Assembly (NCBI RefSeq): GCF_006345805.1
Contig: NC_043004.1
Span: forward strand, 96,286,001-96,350,000
Source of the DNA: Octopus sinensis
Taxonomy: Eukaryota
Direction: 5' to 3'
DNA: 64,000 nt
Shown here: positions 1,357 through 53,512 of the stretch, in pieces
How the letters are laid out: each line of letters opens with the position of its first letter
Position numbering within the stretch: position 1 is the stretch's first letter
Made by a program: the position numbers and the translations under genes
Notes under the pieces: generated by a model
The model's database searches: none
What the model saw: only the letters and a program-made list of their open reading frames with translations
What the model was told of the DNA's origin: nothing

Positions 1357-1929
1357 GTATGTGTGTGTGTGTTAAACATTAATATACTTTCTTGAGAAAC
1401 TTGTAAGTGTAATCAAATGAATGCATGAAAAAAAACTACTTGTTTGAGAAACTAAACATCAGCATGTCCACTGATCAATTGAACTGTAGATAACAAAAAG
1501 GTCCTCCCTAGATAAAGGACCTTGTGAATTTCAAAGCTCATTTTATAAGCATCACCTATTTAAACTTTTAAAGTTTACATGACACATTTTGAACAATCAT
1601 CTAATGTACACAAATATACTGACAAAATATAAGATACATACAAAACTAAAACCTTCATGCACAAAAATTCCTTATAAGCAACATCTAGAAACCATACAAT
1701 AAAACTAATGTCTGGAAACATAATGTCATGAACTGAAGCAAAGGTGCTAGTCACCCTCCTAAAGATAGAAAGTATCTTGCTTTGTGCAACTTTATGTTTT
1801 AGAGGTTTAAATGCTGTTATAGCAACCTGCTAAATATGAAATAGATATTGTAAATAAGTTTATTCTCAAAGCCACCTACTCATATAACAGAAGAGCTGCA
1901 AGGGTTGAACCTATGGGGTTGTGGTGTAA

Positions 1930-3330
1930 TTGTAATCAACAGGTTCCACAACATCAAGTATAAAGCAGCCTGCAAGTTCACTCAATTCATTATCATGAAC
2001 TACTGTCCTTGAATTTTGGGATCTTTCCTCCGGAAGGCCCTAGCTTTAAGCAGACAATTTACCAGCATTATCGACCTTGATGTTGGAATCATTGTGGATA
2101 CTAGGAAGGTTGGTTTCCTGAACATAATACTAGATCTCTAGACATGCAAGTATTGCCTCTGCAAAAAGCCCAATGAAGAAGCTTTTTGTATTTGTTGATA
2201 CTCTAGTTATCTCAAATATATTTAGAAACATAATCATAGATAGCAGCAGAAGAATCTTCAATCTATTGACGAAGTGATAGATTTTCAACAAAGCTGCACA
2301 CCTCTATGAATGCTACTACCCAGGAGAGGCACTGCTAGTAGTTTAGTGCATATCGAGATTCTGTATCTTACACTGAGTGAGTTAGAATGAAAACAATGAT
2401 TCAGTTTAATTCTCTGTGCAATCTATTTATTTCCACTAGTATATCTAGGAGCTTACTCTTTACTCTTTACTCTTTACTCTTTTACTTGTTTCAGTCATTA
2501 GACTGCGGCCATGCTGGAGCAGCACCTTTAGTCGACCAAATTGACACCAGGACTTATTCTTTGTAAGCCCAGTACTTATTCTATCAGTCTCTTTTTGCCG
2601 AACCGCCAAGTGACAGGGACGTAAACACACCAGCATCGGTTGTCAAGCGATGGTAGGGGGGACAAACACAGACACACAAACATATACACACACATACATA
2701 TATACGACAGGCTTCTTTCAGTTTCCGTCTACTAAATCCACTCACAAGGCATTGGTTGGCCCGAGGCTATAGCAGAAGACACTTGCCCAAGATGCCACGC
2801 AGTGGGACTGAACCCGGAACCATGTGGCTGGTAAGCAAGCTACTTACCACACAGCCACTCCTGCGCCTATCTTGAAACAAATCAAAAAGCACTTCCCCAA
2901 TGCCCATAAATACAATAAGTTCTATAATTTCTATAATGTCAAGGTTGATAACTCATGCATAAATAGTATTGCATCTAACATTGCAGGCTAGAACAGAAGA
3001 AAACACTCACCCACAAAGTTTTCACTCTGCTCTCTAACCTGTAACTATACCAGCTCCCCATGGGAAGCATTCAGTCACTGAAAAGATGTGATTCATATAG
3101 CCACCCCTCACACTATCCAATGGCATCATGAGGCATTACATGGGCATGACAGCCAATAGCTTTAAGCTTTGATACACACAACACAAACAATCCTTTAGGT
3201 GTAGGAACAGGAGAAAACTCTACCTCATTGTTCCACACCCTTTGGAGACACAAGAACTATAAAAGAAATTTCACCAACATTAACTGAAGTGTTCCTGATA
3301 GGGTCATTCTTTATTCACTCAATGCTTCTA
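1930..3330 (+). pseudogene. decayed Penelope-like element ORF (RT, thumb, GIY-YIG endonuclease), split by a SINE
   Basis: Broken translations KFTQF.., VGFLNIILDL*TCKY..KKPNEE, IFNKAAHLYE, LKQIKKHFPNAHKYNKFY..VKV..SC, HYMGMTANSFKL*YTQHKQSFR and NSTSL match PLE RT and GIY-YIG motifs; many stops and frameshifts. Confidence 0.85.
2455..2868 (-). mobile_element. SINE family A (tRNA-like head, internal TA/TG microsatellite, CR1-type tail), full length
   Basis: Head GGCGCAGGAGTGGCTGTGTGGTAAG...GGTTCAGTCCC (A/B-box-like) and tail CAGCATGGCCGCAGTC..GACTGAAACAAGTAAAAGAG; >15 copies in window. Confidence 0.92.
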
Positions 3331-3739
3331 GTGAGAAACTGCATATACTCCACTAACCTATCATTCTTTAAAACAATGTAAACTAATCTATGATACGACT
3401 AATTTCCTGAATACTGTTATTATTAATGTTACTTTTATAAAACAGTAGTTAGATATGTTTAGCCTATTATTGTTTTTAAATTTTGAATTTTCATTTTCAA
3501 TTTTCATTGAATTAAAAAAAAAATTATTAATCAATGTTAATATCTGAAAAGATAAAAAAAATGAAACATAAAAATTTTTTCTGTCCACTCATAAACGCAC
3601 CACATATCAAATATCCCTCATGCACACATAGGCATGCACACAGACAAACACAGATGCATACACATATAGAGGAAGAAAATACATTTTTTTCAATAGTAAC
3701 CTGAAGAATATTGATAATCCATAAAAAAAATCTACCCAC

Positions 3740-3805
3740 CTTCCCCAAACAAAATATTAAGAACGTGCCCATACATCTAATATTATCAATAATTTCTTGA
3801 CTCAT
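3740..3805 (-). other. candidate first coding exon (22 codons)
   Basis: ATG...GGGAAG|GTGGGT donor, phase 0 (MSQEIIDNIRCMGTFLIFCLGK); phase-compatible with 9-67; no homology recognised. Confidence 0.2.
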
Positions 3806-4089
3806 TTAGACTGATCGGCTTTCAGAATGAAATGATGGAAAGTGGAGGAAGTGATGAGTGGGAAAATTGTTAAAAATCAGAAGATTGCAATAAAAAAAAA
3901 TAATCAAATAACAAAATAAAACCTAAAAATATTTTTTTTCAAAAAGTCTGAAAAAAGAAAACTAACAAAATGATTTACTTTCTTCTCCACTCCCTCCCCC
4001 ACCTCACTGTAATCTCCACACTATAATCATTCTGTTCAGAATTAATGGAATTCTGAAAGATTTTGTTACAAATTTAAGTTTCTTAGCTT

Positions 4090-4167
4090 TAGAAGTACAT
4101 ATATATATATACATAAATAAATATATGTAAGTAAGCATACATACATAACATATATATAATATATATA

Positions 4168-4212
<45 letters not shown>

Positions 4213-4424
4213 TCATACAGACACATAAATAGGCATATACACTTTATATACGCATATGTATATATACATGTATATATGTGTGTCTGTAATGAATATGTAT
4301 GTATATATACACTTGCACTTGTATAAATATATATGGAAATTGTTATGTATGCATTTAGCTGTAAACAGGTACACACACATACCCATCCACGTCTCTCTCT
4401 CACTCTCTCTCTCACACACTCTCT

Positions 4425-4461
<37 letters not shown>

Positions 4462-4529
4462 ACACAGGCATGTATGTAAGAAAGTATCTGCTGATATATG
4501 TATATATGTACATAAATTCATACATATTT

Positions 4530-4561
<32 letters not shown>

Positions 4562-4864
4562 ATACATACATACACACTTATACATACATATATGTGTGTG
4601 TGCATATATATATGTATATATATATATATATATATAAGAAAATAGTAAAGTGTATACACATGTGTGTATATATATATATATGTATGATATGTATATCTGT
4701 ATGAATAACTGAATGAATGAATGAATGCATATGTGTATGTTTTTATATATGCATACCCACCACACCTGCAAAGCAATATATGTATATGTGAATAATATTT
4801 ATCATTTTTTATAGCAAAAAGTGTGCATAAGCAAGTATATATGCATACATACATACATACATAC

Positions 4865-4939
<75 letters not shown>

Positions 4940-4940
4940 A
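4090..4940. repeat. compound (TA)n/(CA)n/(CT)n/(CATA)n microsatellite field
   Basis: Direct reading; explains the YI/CV-rich ORFs. Confidence 0.95.
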
Positions 4941-5804
4941 ATGTTTGTTGCTGTCTATGCATACTAATTTCCATACGTCACCATTTAGTATACATTACCA
5001 ATATTACAGCACCATTTATTGCAACTCTAAGCAATATGTTAAAAGTATTTTAAATAAAGTGAACTATAATGAACATCGGTAACATTCTCCCCTCTTATTT
5101 TATCATCAATACTTTTTTTGCTTCTTTACACTTTGATATGTTATATTCTTACTTTGTCACTTTTTACAATATATATATTTAACATTTATTATATCTTGAG
5201 TCAGTCAACTGTAGAAGCCATTTTTTTTTCCTACTTTATATCTACGTTTCTATCTTATTTTTTCCCTTGTTTTTTTTTATTTCTGATTTCGTCATTTTTC
5301 TCCATCATCATCATCATCATCTCTCTCTTCTTCTTCACTTCTCTTTTACTTTACCTTACTATATTTATCTATCTATCTTACATCTTTTTGTCTCGTTTTC
5401 TTTTATTTCTGTTTTCCATTTTCCTCTAGTGGCCTCTTACATCTTCATTTTGATGTCTATATATTTTCACATGTCTCCTTGTATATTCTTATATCTGCTT
5501 GTGTCCTCTTGTGTCTCCTTATGTTTGTTGTGCCTTCTTTTTCAGTGTCTCTGTGTCTACCATGCCTTTTCATAGCTCTTCATATCTTCTCTTGATTTCT
5601 TGTATCCCCTTGTGTCTTCTTCTACCTTCTTATGTCCTCATGTCTTCTTGTGCCCCTTGTGTCTTCTTTTTGCTTTCCTTTGGATATTTCCCTTGTCTTC
5701 TTGCATATTTTTGTGTCTCTTTGGATCCCTCTGCATCTCCTAGTCTTTTTATTTCCCTTTCTTTTTCCTTGTATCTCCACGTGTTATTTTCTCTCCCCTG
5801 CTCT

Positions 5805-23824: not shown

Positions 23825-24014
23825 TTCTTTTCTCTCTCTCTCTCCTTCTTTCTCTCTCTCTCCCCTTCTTTCTCTCTCTCTCTCTCCTTCGTTCTCTCTC
23901 TCTCCTTCTTTCTCTCTCTCTCTCTCTCTCTCCATCCATCCATCTATCTATGTATCTATCTATCTATCTATCTATCTGTCTGTATGTCTGTCTGTCTATC
24001 AATTTATCTATCTC

Positions 24015-24049
<35 letters not shown>

Positions 24050-24063
24050 GTCTGTCTATCAAT

Positions 24064-24129
<66 letters not shown>

Positions 24130-24225
24130 GTCTGTCTATCAATTTATCTATCTTTCTATATATCTATCCATCTATCCATCTATCCATCCATCTATCCATC
24201 TATCTATCTGTCTATCTGTCTATCT
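23825..24225. repeat. (CT)n plus (CTAT)n microsatellite
   Basis: Direct reading. Confidence 0.95.
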
Positions 24226-24494
24226 AACTCCCACATAAGTTTTTGGTTATTCTTCTTCTAAATCTTTGTTTTATCCTGAAAGAATACAAATCTGAACTGA
24301 AGATGGTTTCAAACTGGTGGTTTCAGGTAATTAATTTCATACCTCATTGCTCTTCAGTTCAAATTCCCTATAGGGGAATAAAACAAGTAGAAATCAGCCT
24401 GTATACTGTCACTGGACCAGTTAGAAACAGTTGTGAAAACTACATTAGATTATATCCTACCGTAATGAAAATAATAATAAATAAATATATGCAC

Positions 24495-24732
24495 CATTTT
24501 AAAGCCAGGCTCATGGGCCTCGTTTCCTGGTTTCTATGGTGTATGTGTTCCCCAGCTGGATGGGACGCCAGTCCATCGCAGCGTTACTCATTTTTGCCAG
24601 CTGGGTGGACTGGAGCAACGCGAAATGGAGTGTTTTGCTCAAGAACACAACGCGTCGCTTAGTCCTGGAATTGAAACCACAATCTTACGATCATGGTGCT
24701 GACACCCTAACCACTAAGCCACGTGCCTCCAC
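24495..24732 (-). mobile_element. SINE family C monomer, nested in an older degenerate repeat
   Basis: Reverse of the 250-bp monomer of the dimers at 33819 and 36680. Confidence 0.88.
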
Positions 24733-25082
24733 AATAAAATAGGATACATTGAATAATGTAGTTCTAAATACATACCTCTGAATAAAAGACTAGATGATCA
24801 TGAGTAGCCTGTTATTTGATTCTTAGTTTTCTAGGACAGGAATGACCTGAGGCCAAAAAATAACAATAATGGGAATTCCTTTGTTTTGTGGCAAAACACT
24901 TTATTTTACATTACCTTATTTCACCTAGCTATTTGTAGGAATTGATACTAAATCCTCAAAGAATGTTAGCTGGTGTTGCATAACTAGCACCTGTTCTGGT
25001 GGCATGTAAAATACACCTTTTAAGCTTTGGATCTCATGGAGGCAATAACAAATAACTGAGAACTTTGATATGCTGTGCTTGA

Positions 25083-25990
25083 AGGTGATGAGCTGGTAGA
25101 AAAGTTAGCATGCCAGGTGAAACATGTAGCAATATTTCATCTGTCTTTATGTTCTGAGTTCAAATTTTGGTAAGGTCGACCTTACCTTTCATTCCTTCGG
25201 GGTCAATAAATTGAGTACCAGTTGTGTATTGGGGTAGATCTAATCGACTGCCCCTCTCCCCAAAAGTTTTGGGCCTTGGGCCGGGAGTAGAAAAGAATAT
25301 GCTGTGCTTGAGAAGAAGACTCATCAAGCCAAATGAAATCATAGTCATGACAGACACTCGAGTCCTGCAAATGGCACCTGTACAGTTATATTTAGCCCCA
25401 TGTAACTTGATTTTCCATAGGCTCATCATGGGAACCTAGCCAATTGACTGCTTGAACCTGATGAGCTAAGTTCCTGTGAGGAACCTGCAAAACTTTAAGT
25501 GGCATGGGACTGAAAAAAACTGTTTTAGATAATCCTTTCTACTATAGACATCAGGACTGAAATTTTGTGCAGGGTGGGGTGGGTGTGGATGGGCTAGTCA
25601 ATTACATCGACCCCAGTGTGTAACTGGTACTTATTTCATCGACTCTGAAAAGATGAAAGGCAAAGTCAACCTTGGCAGGATTTGAACTCAGAATGTAAGG
25701 ACAGATGAAATGCTGTTAAGCATTTTGCCTCGCAAGCTAAATGATTCTGCCAGCTTGCCACATTAAGTGTTATGCATATTATTATTCAAAACAGTTTAAG
25801 TTGGTGAGCTAGCAGAATCATTAGCATGCCGGGCAAAATGGTTGGCAGCATTTCTCCCATCTTTATATTCTGAGATCACATTCTGCCAGGGTCACCTTTG
25901 CTCTTCCTACTTTTAGGGTTGAGCATTGAGGTTGACGACATTGATTTAATCCTCACCCCTGAAATTGTTAGCCTTGTGCCAAAATTTGCA
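25083..25990. mobile_element. cluster of three SINE family D copies (+25083-25297, -25535-25760, +25800-25990) with an RTE tail fragment
   Basis: GGTGAGCTGG.AGAA..TTAGCATGCC..GAGTTCAAATT..CTTTCATTCCTTCGGGGTCAATAAA..AGTACCAG core. Confidence 0.8.
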
Positions 25991-26126
25991 AGCAATATAT
26001 ATGACTCTTACTAAATGTGCCAAATGCCTTTTTTCCTTCAATTGTCCACTCACTTGTACATGCATACTCACACACACATGCACACTCACATATATGTATC
26101 TATGTGTATGTGTGTGCATGTGTATA

Positions 26127-26385
26127 TCATCATCATCATCATCGTCATCGTATAATGTCTGCTTTCCATGCTAGAAAGCCAGTGGCTGCACCCACCAGGC
26201 TCCAATCTGATCTGGCAATGTTTCTAAAGCTGGATGCCCTTCCTAACACCAACTACTCTGAGAGTGTAGTTGGTGCTATTTATGTACCACTGACATGGGA
26301 GCCAGTCAGGCAGCCCTGGCATCGATCACATTTGGATAGTGCTTTTTACATGCCACTAGCACAAGAGCCAGCCAGATGCACTGGC
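26127..26385 (-). mobile_element. RTE-associated 3' tail fragment
   Basis: ctggatgcccttcctaacaccaac...; (CAT)n at the left end. Confidence 0.75.
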
Positions 26386-26611
26386 CATTCTTTTATTTGA
26401 TTCAGTCATTTGACTGGGGCCATGCTGGAGCACTACCTTTAGTCAAACAAATCCTAGTACTTATTCTATCAGTCTCTTTTGCAAAACAGCTAACTTATGG
26501 CCACATAAACACAACATCGGTTGTCAAGCAATGGTAGGGGGACAAATACACACACACACACACACAGAAAGGAGGAATTTTGATTATCTCCACGTTGTGA
26601 GTTGTAATATA

Positions 26612-26840
26612 TATATATAAGAAATTAAAGAAGGAAAATGCACACTTGTTATATAGTTTTAATATGATTTTTAATATATTTTATATTGTGTTTGTCGACT
26701 GGTTTCACTTTCGCTAATCATGACATTAAAATTTTAATGTTATGATTAACAAAAGCGAAACTAGTCAACAAACACAATATAAAATATATTAAAACTATGT
26801 AAAGTGTGTGCATTTTCCTTCTTTAATTTCTAATATATAT
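26612..26840. mobile_element. ~230-bp palindromic fold-back element with an HHR-variant in each arm
   Basis: Centre cattaaaattttaatg; arms end agaaattaaagaaggaaaatgcacac / gtgtgcattttccttctttaatttct; TA flanks. Confidence 0.85.
26738..26770 (+). ncRNA. minimal hammerhead-like motif, A3-U8 core variant (mirror copy 26693-26725, -)
   Basis: TGTT-ATGATTA-ac-aaaa-gc-GAAAC-ta-GTC^AACA; minus arm TGTC-ATGATTA-GC-gaaa-GT-GAAAC-ca-GTC^GACA. Confidence 0.55.
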
Positions 26841-27071
26841 AAAGAATAAAAAGCTTTGAATGGTACAACAATGCACTATAATACAAACAATTGGCTATAT
26901 ATACATATGAGAGGCTTCTTTCAGTTTCCATCTACCAAATCAACTCACAAGGCTTTGGTTGGCTTGAAGATATAGTAGGAGGCACTTGCCCAAGGTGCCA
27001 CACTGTGGGACTGAAACCGGAACCATGTGGTCGGTAGGCAAGCTACTTACTACACATCCACACCTGCGCCT

Positions 27072-27230
27072 TGTTTCTCTCCTTGTTTCTTTCTGTGTTC
27101 CTTTTTGTGGAAGAGTGTAGGCTCAAAACGTAAATGACTTTTTCAATTCCTGAGCATTATACTAATACATCTGTTTGTTTTCTACACCACCTGTCTTAGT
27201 CTTTTGTTTTTTTCGTGAATTCTCCCTATA
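27072..27230 (+). mobile_element. Penelope-type terminal-repeat fragment (same family as 18450-18885)
   Basis: ttgtggaagagtgtaggctcaaaacgtaaatgac...cctgagc..atactaataca; ends in (TA)n. Confidence 0.65.
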
Positions 27231-27234
27231 TATA

Positions 27235-27282
<48 letters not shown>

Positions 27283-27518
27283 TATATGTGTGAGGTGTGG
27301 ATACACATATGCATGCACACACACATACACATACATATGCAGGCATATACAAAATGTGTACATACATGAGTATGTACATTTTTTTAGCTTAAGGCAATTG
27401 TCTAGAGGTTATTTCTGAAATAAGGTGTGATATTATAAATATGAATGCTAAACTAAACATGGTAAAATCTGTAAAACAAATCTTAGATATTTATAGACAA
27501 ATATATTTACATTGTGTG

Positions 27519-27852
27519 AAGGCACATAGCTCAGTGTTTAGAGCGTCGAGCTTACGATAGTGAGGTTGTGAGTTCGATTCCTGGACCGGGATGTGTGTTG
27601 TGTTCTTGAGCAAGACACTTTATTTCACGTTGCTCCAGTTCACTCAGCTGTAGAAATGAGTTGCGACATTACAAGTGCCAAGCTATATCGGCCTTTGCCT
27701 TTCCCTTGGATAACACTGGTGGTGTAGAGAGGGGAGGCCGGTATGCATGGACGACTGCTAGTCTTCCATAAACAACCTCACCCTGACTTGTGCCTCGGAG
27801 GGTAACTTTCTAGGTGCAGTCCCATGGTCATTCATGACCGAAGGAGGTCTCC
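27519..27852 (+). mobile_element. SINE family B, full length
   Basis: As 20960-21290. Confidence 0.9.
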
Positions 27853-28141
27853 TCCTCTTATTTACGTTGTGAATAGGTACATGCTCTGTAGGCAAGTGCA
27901 TATATACACTAACAAACACATATGCAATGGTTAATGTGAAAGGACCAAGTTATATAAACATATATCTAATCACATGCAATTATAGATATATATTGATAAG
28001 AACACTCATGAACGGAAACATACACAAGTTCTTATTAATCATAAATAACATTATATCATACTAAAGTTGTTATCATAGCCATAAGAGCACCACACACGGG
28101 GATGATGTGCGTACATATATAATATATATATATATATATAG

Positions 28142-28553
28142 AGGCGCAGGAGTGGCTGTGTGGTAAGTAGCTTGCTAACCAACCACATGGTTCCAGGTTC
28201 AGTCTCACTGCATGGCATCTTGGGCAAGTGTCTTCTGCTATAGCCCCGGGCCGACCAATGCCTTGTGAGTGGATTTGGTAGATGGAAACTGAAAGAAGCC
28301 TGTCGTATATATGTATATATATATATGTATGTGTGTGTGTGCTTGTGTGTCTGTGTTTGTCCCCCTAGCATTGCCTCACAACCGATGCTGGTGTGTTTAC
28401 GTCCCCGTCATCTAGCGGTTTGGCAATAGAGACCGATAGAATAAGTACTGGGCTTACAAAGAATAAGTTCCGGGGTCGATTTACTCAACTAAAGGCGGTG
28501 CTCCAGCATGGCCGCAGTCAAATAAGTGAAACAAGTAAAAGAGTAAAAGAGTA
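28142..28553 (+). mobile_element. SINE family A, full length
   Basis: As above. Confidence 0.92.
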
Positions 28554-28579
28554 ATATATATATATATATATATATATAT

Positions 28580-28786
28580 TCTTTTACTTGTTTCAGTCAT
28601 TTGACTGCGGCCATGCTGGAGCTCTGCCTTTTAGTCGAGTAATTCGACCCCAGGACTTATTCTTTGTAAGCCTAGTACTTATTCTATCAGTCTCTTTTGC
28701 TGAACCACTAAGTTACGGGGATGTAAACACACCACCGTCGGTTGTCAAGCAATGGTAGGGGGACAAACACAGACACACAAACATAT

Positions 28787-28827
<41 letters not shown>

Positions 28828-28950
28828 TACGATGGGCTAAGGCTTTGGTCGGGCCGAGACTATAGTAGAAGACACTTGCCCAAGGTGCCACGAACCCGGA
28901 ACCATGTGATTGGTAAGCAAGCTACTTACCACACAGCCACTCCTACACCT
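28580..28950 (-). mobile_element. SINE family A with small internal deletions
   Basis: Tail-to-tail with the previous copy. Confidence 0.9.
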
Positions 28951-29987
28951 ATATATATATATATATAAGCATAAATACATATATAGACTCATACAAAAAC
29001 AGGTGTACTCTGAGATATATATATACTTAGACATATATGCGAGCACAAATTCTCATACAGGTGTATGTGTATAAATACATGCTGATGAAAGACACTCACA
29101 TACATGTATACATTCTTACATTCATACATACATACATGCATACATGCATGCATACATACATACATACATACATACATACATGCATACATACATACATAGA
29201 TACATATATGTACATCACACACTGGCATACATATATAGTAATAGGCAAACAACATATGCACACGCACATGTAGATACATAGACCAGTACACTCTCTCTTT
29301 TTCTCTCTGTGTCTGTCTGTCTATCTGTCTCTCTCTGTCTGTCTATCTCTCTCTCTCTCTATCTCTATCTCTCTCTTATATAGACACAAGCAAACACAAC
29401 ACAATTATACATACATATGCTCTATTGCAGCCCACAGTATTAACAATTTAAACTATGTAACAAAAACCCAAACTAAGCCAAAGTATTTAGTTTTATTTCA
29501 AAAATAAATATTCAATATTAAATTTTCATTTTCGTTTTATTTATTATATTCTTATTCATTTTTTCTTTTTTCTTTTTTTCGGCAGAGAGGAGGAAATTAT
29601 TGTAATTTTTAATGTACCTGTCATGGCAGTTGTAAAAGTACCTAAAACAGTTAATAATGAAGAAAATAATCTCTGAAATAAGTGTACAAAGAAACAAACA
29701 GCCAATATTTCATCGTTCCCCACAGCTATGAATTTCACTTGGGAAAGTTAACAGAAATAAAAGCATACTAATAAGAATAATAATTAATTGTTATTAAGCA
29801 AAAACAGAGTAAAAATATAGCACCAAACAATAATAACAGCATCAGCAACGGTTGCAACATAATGTGTTTAGTTAACAGGATAAACTGAATATAATTCCTT
29901 TAGTTTGTTTTATGCTGCTATGACCAAAATGAGATCTCTGCCAAACAGACAAATAAATAAATAAATAAATATATATATATATATATA

Positions 29988-52500: not shown

Positions 52501-53197
52501 ATGTCTGGTCATGGAGTGACCAATAGTTTTTCATTCATAAGGGGACCTAGACCAATGGATGGCTCATCAGACTCTAAAGCCAAGGAATTGGTCACTCTAT
52601 GACTGGACATAGACTTCACTGCATGTAAATACATTACTGCTTTATGCTTTAGAGTGTACTTGTGTTTTGGATATATGATACATTGATGATACATACATGT
52701 ATCATCAATCACCGTAGGAGCGGCTGTATTGTAAGTAGCTTGCTTACGAACCACATGGTTCCAGGTTCAGTCCCACTGTGTGGCACCTTAGGCAAGTGTC
52801 TTCTTCTCTAGCCTCGTGCCGACCAAAGCCTTGTGAGTGGATTTGGTAAACAGAAACTGAAAGAATCCCGTCGCATATATGTATACCAAGAATCACTACT
52901 GTTGCTCCCATCGGAACACAAGGTAAAATCTATAATGAACTCCTGCACTACACTTGACAAAACAGTAAGGAATGACTTACACCTTATAATATATTTTTCG
53001 CCTTTTCAAGAACAAGGATTCTATTGAATGTATATATCATGGACTCTATTGAATGTATGTAACAATTATGAACTATTCCATTATACTCTTTATTATAAAA
53101 AAATTCTTTTTGATAAGGTTCGTTATTTCAAGAACCGAAACATGTAAAAATTAAAATTTATCTAATATAGTGGCATTTTCAAACTTCTTTTTTACAA

Positions 53198-53211
<14 letters not shown>
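51746..53211. repeat. near-identical direct tandem duplication, 733-bp unit
   Basis: Identical ORFs at 51776/52509 and 52100/52833; junctions in (TA)n. Confidence 0.95.
52374..52416 (+). ncRNA. minimal hammerhead-like motif, U3-A8 core variant (duplicate 53107-53149)
   Basis: TTT-TTGATAA-GGTTC-gttatttcaa-GAACC-GAAAC-at-GTA^AAA; perfect 5-bp stem II, palindromic ACATGT stem III, weak stem I. Confidence 0.55.
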
Positions 53212-53255
<44 letters not shown>

Positions 53256-53512
53256 ATATGTTTGTGTGTCTGCATTTGTCCCCCCAACATCACTTGACAA
53301 CCGATGCTGGTGTTTTTACGTCCCCGTAGGTTAGCAGTTCAGCAAAAAAGACCAATAGAATAAGTACTAGGCTTACAAAGAATAAGTCCTGGGGTCGATT
53401 TGCTTGACTAAAAGGCGGTGCTCCAGCATGGTCACAGTAAAATGACTGAAACAAGTAAAAGAGAGTAAAAGAGTAGAGTATGTGTATGTGTGCCTCTGTG
53501 TGTATGTGGGGA

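Follow-up and report, generated by a model that had tools for sequence, protein, structure and literature searches.

Putative A3-U8 type I hammerhead motifs in a decayed palindromic insertion of a Penelope-like element in Octopus sinensis

A palindromic insertion in a SINE-like repeat

We analysed a window of 64,000 nucleotides of the Octopus sinensis genome (2.72 Gb), from contig NC_043004.1 (positions 96,286,001 to 96,350,000). The window is gene-poor and rich in microsatellites. The locus under study contains the following features:

26381..26565, forward strand: left half of a SINE-like repeat, the insertion target; an abundant repeat that ends in (CA)n and has very deep read cover
26566..26607, reverse strand: one-sided 'tail' of a Penelope-like element (PLE), beyond (TA)n and at the left arm only; the same tail stands behind many family copies
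26610..26731, reverse strand: left arm, an inverted, 5'-truncated 3' end (pseudo-LTR, pLTR) of the PLE; 5.9% from the majority letters of the family
26693..26725, reverse strand: left hammerhead; stem I UGUC/GACA, core AUGAUUA, stem II GC-GAAA-GU, GAAA, CCAG, UC
26732..26841, forward strand: right arm, a 5'-truncated 3' end of the same PLE with a 12-nt deletion; ends in (TA)n
26738..26770, forward strand: right hammerhead; stem I UGUU/AACA, core AUGAUUA, stem II AC-AAAA-GC, GAAA, CUAG, UC
26842..26894, no strand assigned: 53-nt piece flanked by TA runs; probably a remnant of another repeat
26895..27075, forward strand: right half of the SINE-like repeat; starts in (TA)n

The arms form an inverted repeat without spacer (junction 26731/26732), identical at 99 of 110 aligned bases apart from one 12-nt indel. 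The hairpin has a predicted fold of -118.9 kcal/mol (z -22), and none of 200 shuffles was equally stable. Its insertion split the SINE-like repeat at the (CA)n/(TA)n centre: the halves of this repeat lie 17-95 bp apart in 49 of the 53 pairs found, and 360 bp apart here. The 53-nt piece has a read depth of about 130 and one other match among the loci (L186, 83% over 52 nt), likewise between TA runs.

The window holds no RT-EN remnant, and no third hammerhead motif besides the two arms. A scan of 24000-29500 against Rfam returned no hammerhead family up to E 10, and gave only microRNA-type hairpin matches below gathering scores. This silence is no evidence against a hammerhead, because the minimal form lies below the detection reach of the models. 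Two other arrangements occur in the window. A second, weaker inverted repeat at 25639-25922 (102-nt arms, 74% complementary, 80-nt spacer) is apparently made of two opposed copies of another short repeat. At 52878-53276, another SINE-like copy is split at its microsatellite centre by an insertion of roughly 340 bp.

Both arms carry a hammerhead motif and both have decayed

The first-pass annotation described back-to-back motifs with an ATGATTA core at the correct spacing. Both could be located exactly, in arms that abut without spacer: ATGATTA-N8-GAAAC-N2-GTC has exact matches at 26697-26721 (-) and 26742-26766 (+), and no further match in the window even at 2 mismatches (chance mean 0.24 at 2 mismatches). 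This places A3 and U8 at 26721 and 26716 in the left motif and at 26742 and 26747 in the right one. The 4-bp stem I is paired in both arms as had been described, TGTC/GACA on the left and TGTT/AACA on the right. The core positions U4, G5, A6, A9, G12, A13 and A14, the A15.1-U16.1 pair and H17 are present in both arms and in all 14 rows of the cross-family alignment discussed below. C3 and G8 are absent by identity, with A3 and U8 found in 42 of 42 family copies. The extra unpaired base between A9 and stem II is also absent, and G10.1 directly follows A9.

Relative to the family, the left motif has two changes, both of CpG type (C11.1 to U, and CCGG to CCAG), the latter of which breaks the dimer palindrome. 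The right motif has six transitions, four of them at CpG, and has lost G10.1. The G10.1-C11.1 pair, kept in the family, is thus G-U in the left arm and an A.C mismatch in the right arm. The right-arm helix III, ACUAGU, retains a self-duplex of -4.8, the left-arm ACCAGU has none, and neither arm forms the double-hammerhead fold in dimer prediction. The TGTT/AACA stem of the right arm is probably decay as well: G1.1 to A affects a CpG, and each of the two changes is frequent by itself (6 of 42 family copies in either case).

Each strand carries one motif in sense orientation, as first proposed. A single motif per strand would not be enough, however, because helix III needs a second same-sense copy. 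The suggestion that the long hairpin may sequester the motif agrees with the fold prediction, which pairs the whole 7-base core on either strand (unpaired probability no higher than 0.11). Given CpG-type decay in both arms and a core predicted to be buried in the hairpin, the window copy is likely inert. Its two arms stem from one insertion and are therefore not independent witnesses of A3-U8.

The arms match the 3' ends of a PLE family

In the genomic DNA, a search yielded 1326 candidates, with 40 scored and a match to just one arm in nearly every case. Family copies are for the most part single arms whose 5' ends vary, or continue into RT-EN sequence. Pieces of reading frame upstream of the longer copies encode YLDD, DKG and an endonuclease of GIY-YIG type; the hammerhead motif lies about 300 nt behind the end of the RT + GIY-YIG frame. 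Copies of the family itself retain RT/GIY-YIG coding as broken pieces. Pfam RVT_1 and GIY-YIG both match a 635-aa frame in a sister family (L049) and a 782-aa frame in a young related family (L068), and Atlas look-alikes have the same RT and GIY-YIG domains. The frames upstream of longer copies identify the arms as PLE 3' ends: judged by sequence, each window arm is the last 110-120 nt of such an element.

The translations of L030, L017, L049 and L068 contain a CCHH motif, a CX2-5CxxC linker and a DKG motif; the linker reads CX4CX2C, and the GIY-YIG domain has CxxC and two His. We also observed 5' truncation, an inverted copy, a one-sided tail and a microsatellite target. These motif features, by which the element was assigned, fit a C-terminal EN+ PLE of Neptune/Nematis type; the linker motif is common to Neptune and Nematis and does not single out Neptune. 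The Naiad clade was rejected because the endonuclease is C-terminal.

We also picked copies by a motif downstream of the hammerhead, taking all 57 matches of the own family and 81 of 276 of the sister family. An inverted end lies within 330 nt in 4/57 and 6/81 of these copies, respectively, and the tail, searched as a strict motif, is present in 13/57 and 25/81. L064, L066 and L067 have larger divergent layouts, with RT-EN sequence between the two motifs. The inverted repeat reported by the first-pass annotation is therefore real; what it called a palindromic element consists of two truncated PLE 3' ends in inverted orientation, in a family whose copies are mostly single arms. A MITE or DNA transposon was rejected, as there are no fixed terminal inverted repeats and most copies are single arms with variable 5' ends. 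So was a non-LTR retrozyme, since the locus is an inverted pair from a family linked to RT-EN and not a head-to-tail noncoding tandem.

The young U3-A8 family L068-L073 has open RT-EN frames of 782 aa. In L070, a 499-aa proline-rich frame without Pfam match precedes and overlaps the RT frame (4176-5672 (-) and 1897-4242 (-)), and a frameshift possibly joins the two. In most copies of this family the GAAA strand, about 670 nt past the frame, contains one additional A; it reads GAAAACCGGTT immediately followed by stem I, so that either an A was inserted or base 17 is missing. The additional A is absent from L071, and L079 carries an extra T.

A3-U8 is fixed in the family

The first-pass annotation had called for a genome count of ATGATTA-N8-GAAAC-N2-GTC. 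With 335 exact matches, against 6 for a reversed control pattern, the motif is far from unique to the locus. The majority of 42 copies (5 loci of this set had been chosen by a core pattern) has stem I UGUC/GACA, core AUGAUUA, stem II GC-GAAA-GC, GAAA, CCGG and UC; position 7 varies, with A in 5 of 42. When positions 3, 7 and 8 were left free, 558 genome matches were obtained; among the 100 listed, 94 have A3-U8 and 6 differ at position 3 or 8, none at both. Copies picked by the downstream motif have A3-U8 in 31/35 cases in the own family and 54/56 in the sister family, or 85 of the 91 scoreable copies; the strict pattern could not score 22 and 25 copies, respectively. Only 55 matches combine A3 with a base 8 other than U; C, A and G all occur there, in several types of stem II.

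CpG sites vary at 53/295 across copies, and non-CpG flanks at 131/2598. Non-CpG core bases vary less than flanks (4/320 vs 91/2475, p 0.02), in a test whose copies were picked by BLAST and whose flanks contain AT runs. All such counts overstate the number of events, because the copies descend from few source elements. The family is also present in contigs of three differently labelled organisms where, among the matches listed, position 7 is among the variant rows and positions 3 and 8 are not; the exact 33-nt motif had no match in metagenome contigs.

The 3-8 pair switches among related families

Related motifs with the same helix III carry other 3-8 pairs. Patterns lacking A3 and U8 gave 11,638 matches (vs 540), and about 90 of the 100 listed among these are U3-A8 by hand count. 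A3-U8 gave 1552 (vs 295), G3-C8 139 (vs 46), with endonuclease sequence upstream in several subfamilies, and C3-G8 159 (vs 37), mostly from one tandem family. The flanks of that tandem family had no endonuclease match, which leaves its membership in the PLE clade unsupported. One locus, L182, has U3-A8 in both arms.

A switching subfamily carries either A3-U8 or G3-C8 within otherwise identical flanks, stems and loops. The first 100 of its 141 matches comprise 86 A3-U8, 8 G3-C8 and 6 mismatched copies (2 A3-C8, 2 G3-U8, 1 U3-C8 and 1 A3-G8); the A/G by U/C table gives a Fisher value of 1.2e-8 for copies that are not independent. Across 14 aligned rows, chosen by hand to span families and compared with a shuffle control that ignores kinship, positions 3 and 8 are paired in 14/14 with three pair types (A-U, G-C and U-A). 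Stems I and II also change on both sides in these rows.

The endonuclease tree has 27 rows (21 of the 42 rows of a first tree plus 6 added); an A3-U8 row, L209, was dropped because it had taken the endonuclease of a neighbouring U3-A8 element. The own family and its sister form an A3-U8 clade (100/98) adjoining U3-A8 families, and the remaining A3-U8 rows group with G3-C8 rows (99/98). The tree requires 3 changes at the 3-8 pair, with A3-U8 reached twice. A single A3-U8 clade was rejected (p-AU 5e-106), the test group having been named after a first tree had been seen. We infer U3-A8 as the ancestral state, a root that rests on one long branch. The first-pass annotation read A3-U8 as compensatory for a C3-G8 origin. 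The compensated pair holds at the level of the family; the origin probably does not, as the tree neighbours of the family carry U3-A8 and the path was likely from U3-A8, not C3-G8, to A3-U8.

Among the loci L118-L141 and L088-L115, position 17 is A in all G3-C8 subfamilies read, so that a G3-C17 pair is avoided. A17 also occurs in the U3-A8 family with the most copies, whose predicted fold extends stem I by a U3-A17 pair, which might damp cleavage. A separate repeat family (L143-L166, e.g. G000:C1:182078660-182079399) has a canonical C3-G8 type I hammerhead with longer stems in tandem units of 355-360 bp, often inverted too; by its sequence layout it looks like a non-LTR retrozyme.

A predicted dimer, and tests bearing on cleavage

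An intact copy alone cannot form the junction (+2.7 kcal/mol, predicted). Two intact copies are predicted to form a double hammerhead (-14.9 kcal/mol) with a 6-bp intermolecular helix III from ACCGGU, whose self-duplex is predicted at -8.3. Of five natural copies from other families that were also folded, four gave the same predicted arrangement; the dimer of L137, the only G3-C8 copy folded, differed in part. Stem II is limited to 2 pairs, and we saw no evident loop-loop contact. Intact copies read as minimal type I hammerheads, for which a dimer through ACCGGU is predicted. L176, the one triple tandem of the sister family that was read, was rejected as a natural dimer, since the repeat takes in flanking DNA and has the look of a local duplication. 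At L169 (G000:C1:150622824-150624001), a 577-bp unit stands three times in tandem; every unit carries an A3-U8 motif of a second subfamily, with G at position 17.

The 5' ends of copies show no excess at the predicted cut site: 2 of 138 lie within 2 nt of it, against about 1.5 expected by hand estimate. As 131 of the 138 run through the site, the template RNA would have been mostly uncut or rejoined. L218 and L328 start at or within 2 nt of the site, which is not above chance; in L328, RT-coding sequence is joined directly to it. Raw RNA reads from a differently labelled organism cover the element thinly (depth 0-7), and the 26 reads on an intact copy show no pile-up of ends.

Przybilski and Hammann reportedly found in 2007 that any Watson-Crick 3-8 pair is active in two ribozymes. 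A full double-mutant scan of one type III hammerhead rescued only G3-C8, with A3-U8 low (PMC9901934), and natural U3-A8 hammerheads exist (PMC3088659, PMC4209133), so that tolerance depends on context. The 3-8 pair is a feature of the catalytically arranged core (PMC3884650), and the hammerhead of another PLE, PAc, cleaved with C3G/G8C rescue and was not needed for insertion in vitro (PMC11167929).

Comparison with known systems

Cervera and De la Pena 2014 (PMC4209133) described PLE hammerheads, including opposite-strand pairs and U3-A8 motifs in Cercyon elements of Schistosoma mansoni; their minimal motifs were inactive alone and weakly active as dimers. The octopus motifs share with those pLTR hammerheads the type I order, the short stem I, the tiny palindromic helix III that predicts a dimer, G10.1-C11.1, the pLTR position behind an RT + GIY-YIG frame, and the occurrence as mostly single truncated copies with opposite-strand pairs. 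They differ in having A3-U8, as opposed to the C3-G8 and U3-A8 given in the consulted parts of that paper, in a stem II of only 2 pairs, in lacking the extra base between A9 and G10.1 that the published consensus has, and in the use of three types of 3-8 pair by related families within a single genome.

In the PLEs described by Craig et al. 2021 (PMC8557442), a 5'-truncated copy lies inverted beside the 5' end, and a tail of 30-40 bp is confined to one end. Their C-terminal EN+ elements with a linker Zn finger (Neptune/Nematis) resemble ours in the RT, the CX2-5CxxC linker, the GIY-YIG domain with CxxC and two His, DKG, the (TA)n targets, the inverted 5'-truncated copy and the tail at one end. 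Unlike them, the palindrome locus lacks coding sequence, and in the young relative of its family a long proline-rich frame precedes RT-EN. One-sided tails are common to PMC8557442 and PMC11167929 (Frangieh et al. 2024), and the latter traced them to two internal RT start sites. PAc (Poseidon of Anolis; PMC11167929) is likewise a PLE with a hammerhead, and neither its copies nor its reads terminate at the cut site. It belongs to another PLE clade, however, with a canonical C3-G8 pair, demonstrated protein-assisted activity and partial rescue by C3G/G8C, whereas activity of the octopus motif is predicted. Non-LTR retrozymes (bioRxiv 10.64898/2026.07.22.740005) also have a type I hammerhead in animal genomes and are related to PLE pLTRs, but they are head-to-tail tandems and the locus is an inverted pair of the ends of a coding element; the C3-G8 family with 355-360 bp tandems in the same genome fits them better.

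Discussion

The locus itself is an ordinary decayed insertion. Ribozyme class and element class are both known, and A3-U8 is a genuine core variant that extends through the whole family. We consider it probable that the palindrome is a stump-sized PLE insertion with two back-to-back 3' ends, from a family whose fixed A3-U8 type I hammerheads would have self-cleaved weakly as dimers in the parent RNA. One insertion event could have given the inverted layout, by a fold-back junction at a self-complementary AT stretch. In the parents, tandem or multimeric element RNA would bring together two same-sense motifs; these would pair through ACCGGU into helix III and two complete junctions, with a predicted cut after C17, perhaps with help from the protein that the element encodes, for which another PLE provides a reported case. 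Selection would have acted on source elements, keeping a Watson-Crick 3-8 pair while its identity changed several times. The other matching 3-8 pairs in related families suggest that RNA cleavage by the motif likely persisted in the parent elements.

The main rival, which we hold to be unlikely, is a hammerhead-derived structure that no longer cuts in A3-U8 families and serves as a protein-binding or packaging signal, with positions 3 and 8 kept for shape. It would account for the copies, most of which span the cut site and none of which pile up there, and for the lack of a pile of RNA ends in thin reads; the dispensability of cleavage in vitro for another PLE (PMC11167929) and the low activity of A3-U8 in one mutational scan (PMC9901934) point the same way. 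Against it stand the invariance of U4, G5, A6, A9, G12, A13, A14, A15.1 and U16.1 in all 14 rows, with C or A at position 17, the place of the 3-8 pair in a catalytically arranged core (PMC3884650), and the cleavage and C3G/G8C rescue of the tested PLE hammerhead (PMC11167929).

Drift in a few source elements, with unselected pairs hitch-hiking and arising partly by chance or AT-biased mutation, appears very improbable. Just 3 changes are needed on the tree, copies are non-independent, and G3-C8 to A3-U8 takes two transitions towards AT. Yet every multi-copy state seen is Watson-Crick, with mismatched states as scattered singles, stems I and II change on both sides too, and neither G3 nor C8 lies within CpG in the switching subfamily. 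That the palindrome is itself a functional unit, whether a MITE-like element, a microRNA-type hairpin or a two-way ribozyme cassette cutting the transcripts of either strand, is largely refuted and hardly credible. The hairpin is very stable, there are weak Rfam microRNA matches, and short inverted pairs recur in both families (4/57 and 6/81 copies within 330 nt). But most copies are single arms or continue into RT-EN sequence, junctions and spacers differ among inverted pairs, conserved pairs are lost in both arms, the Rfam scores fall far below gathering, and the read depth is 0-7.

Returning to a putative ribozyme, we see about even prospects for a stronger claim: that A3-U8 is a naturally occurring, so far undescribed active core, and the clade a natural rescue experiment in which the pair moved among U-A, A-U and G-C at least three times, A3-U8 was reached twice and no mismatch was fixed. 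Lunse 2017 reportedly contains many PLE hammerhead variants. The literature searched yielded no natural A3-U8 hammerhead; that study and other supplements, outside its scope, could contain one. Nearly all of these motifs are missed by descriptors fixed on CUGANGA: for one helix III, about 13,000 matches have other pairs and 159 have C3-G8. The sister subfamilies, alike except at positions 3 and 8, offer ready-made natural constructs.

The role of PLE hammerheads has been in doubt: they are poor cutters in vitro, insertion in one reconstituted system did not need them, and a parasitic relation to the elements has been proposed. The repeated paired switches at a core pair that marks the active fold argue that PLE hammerheads are under selection. 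If this is true, cleavage by tiny dimer ribozymes would be selected in vivo, although it is dispensable for insertion in vitro.
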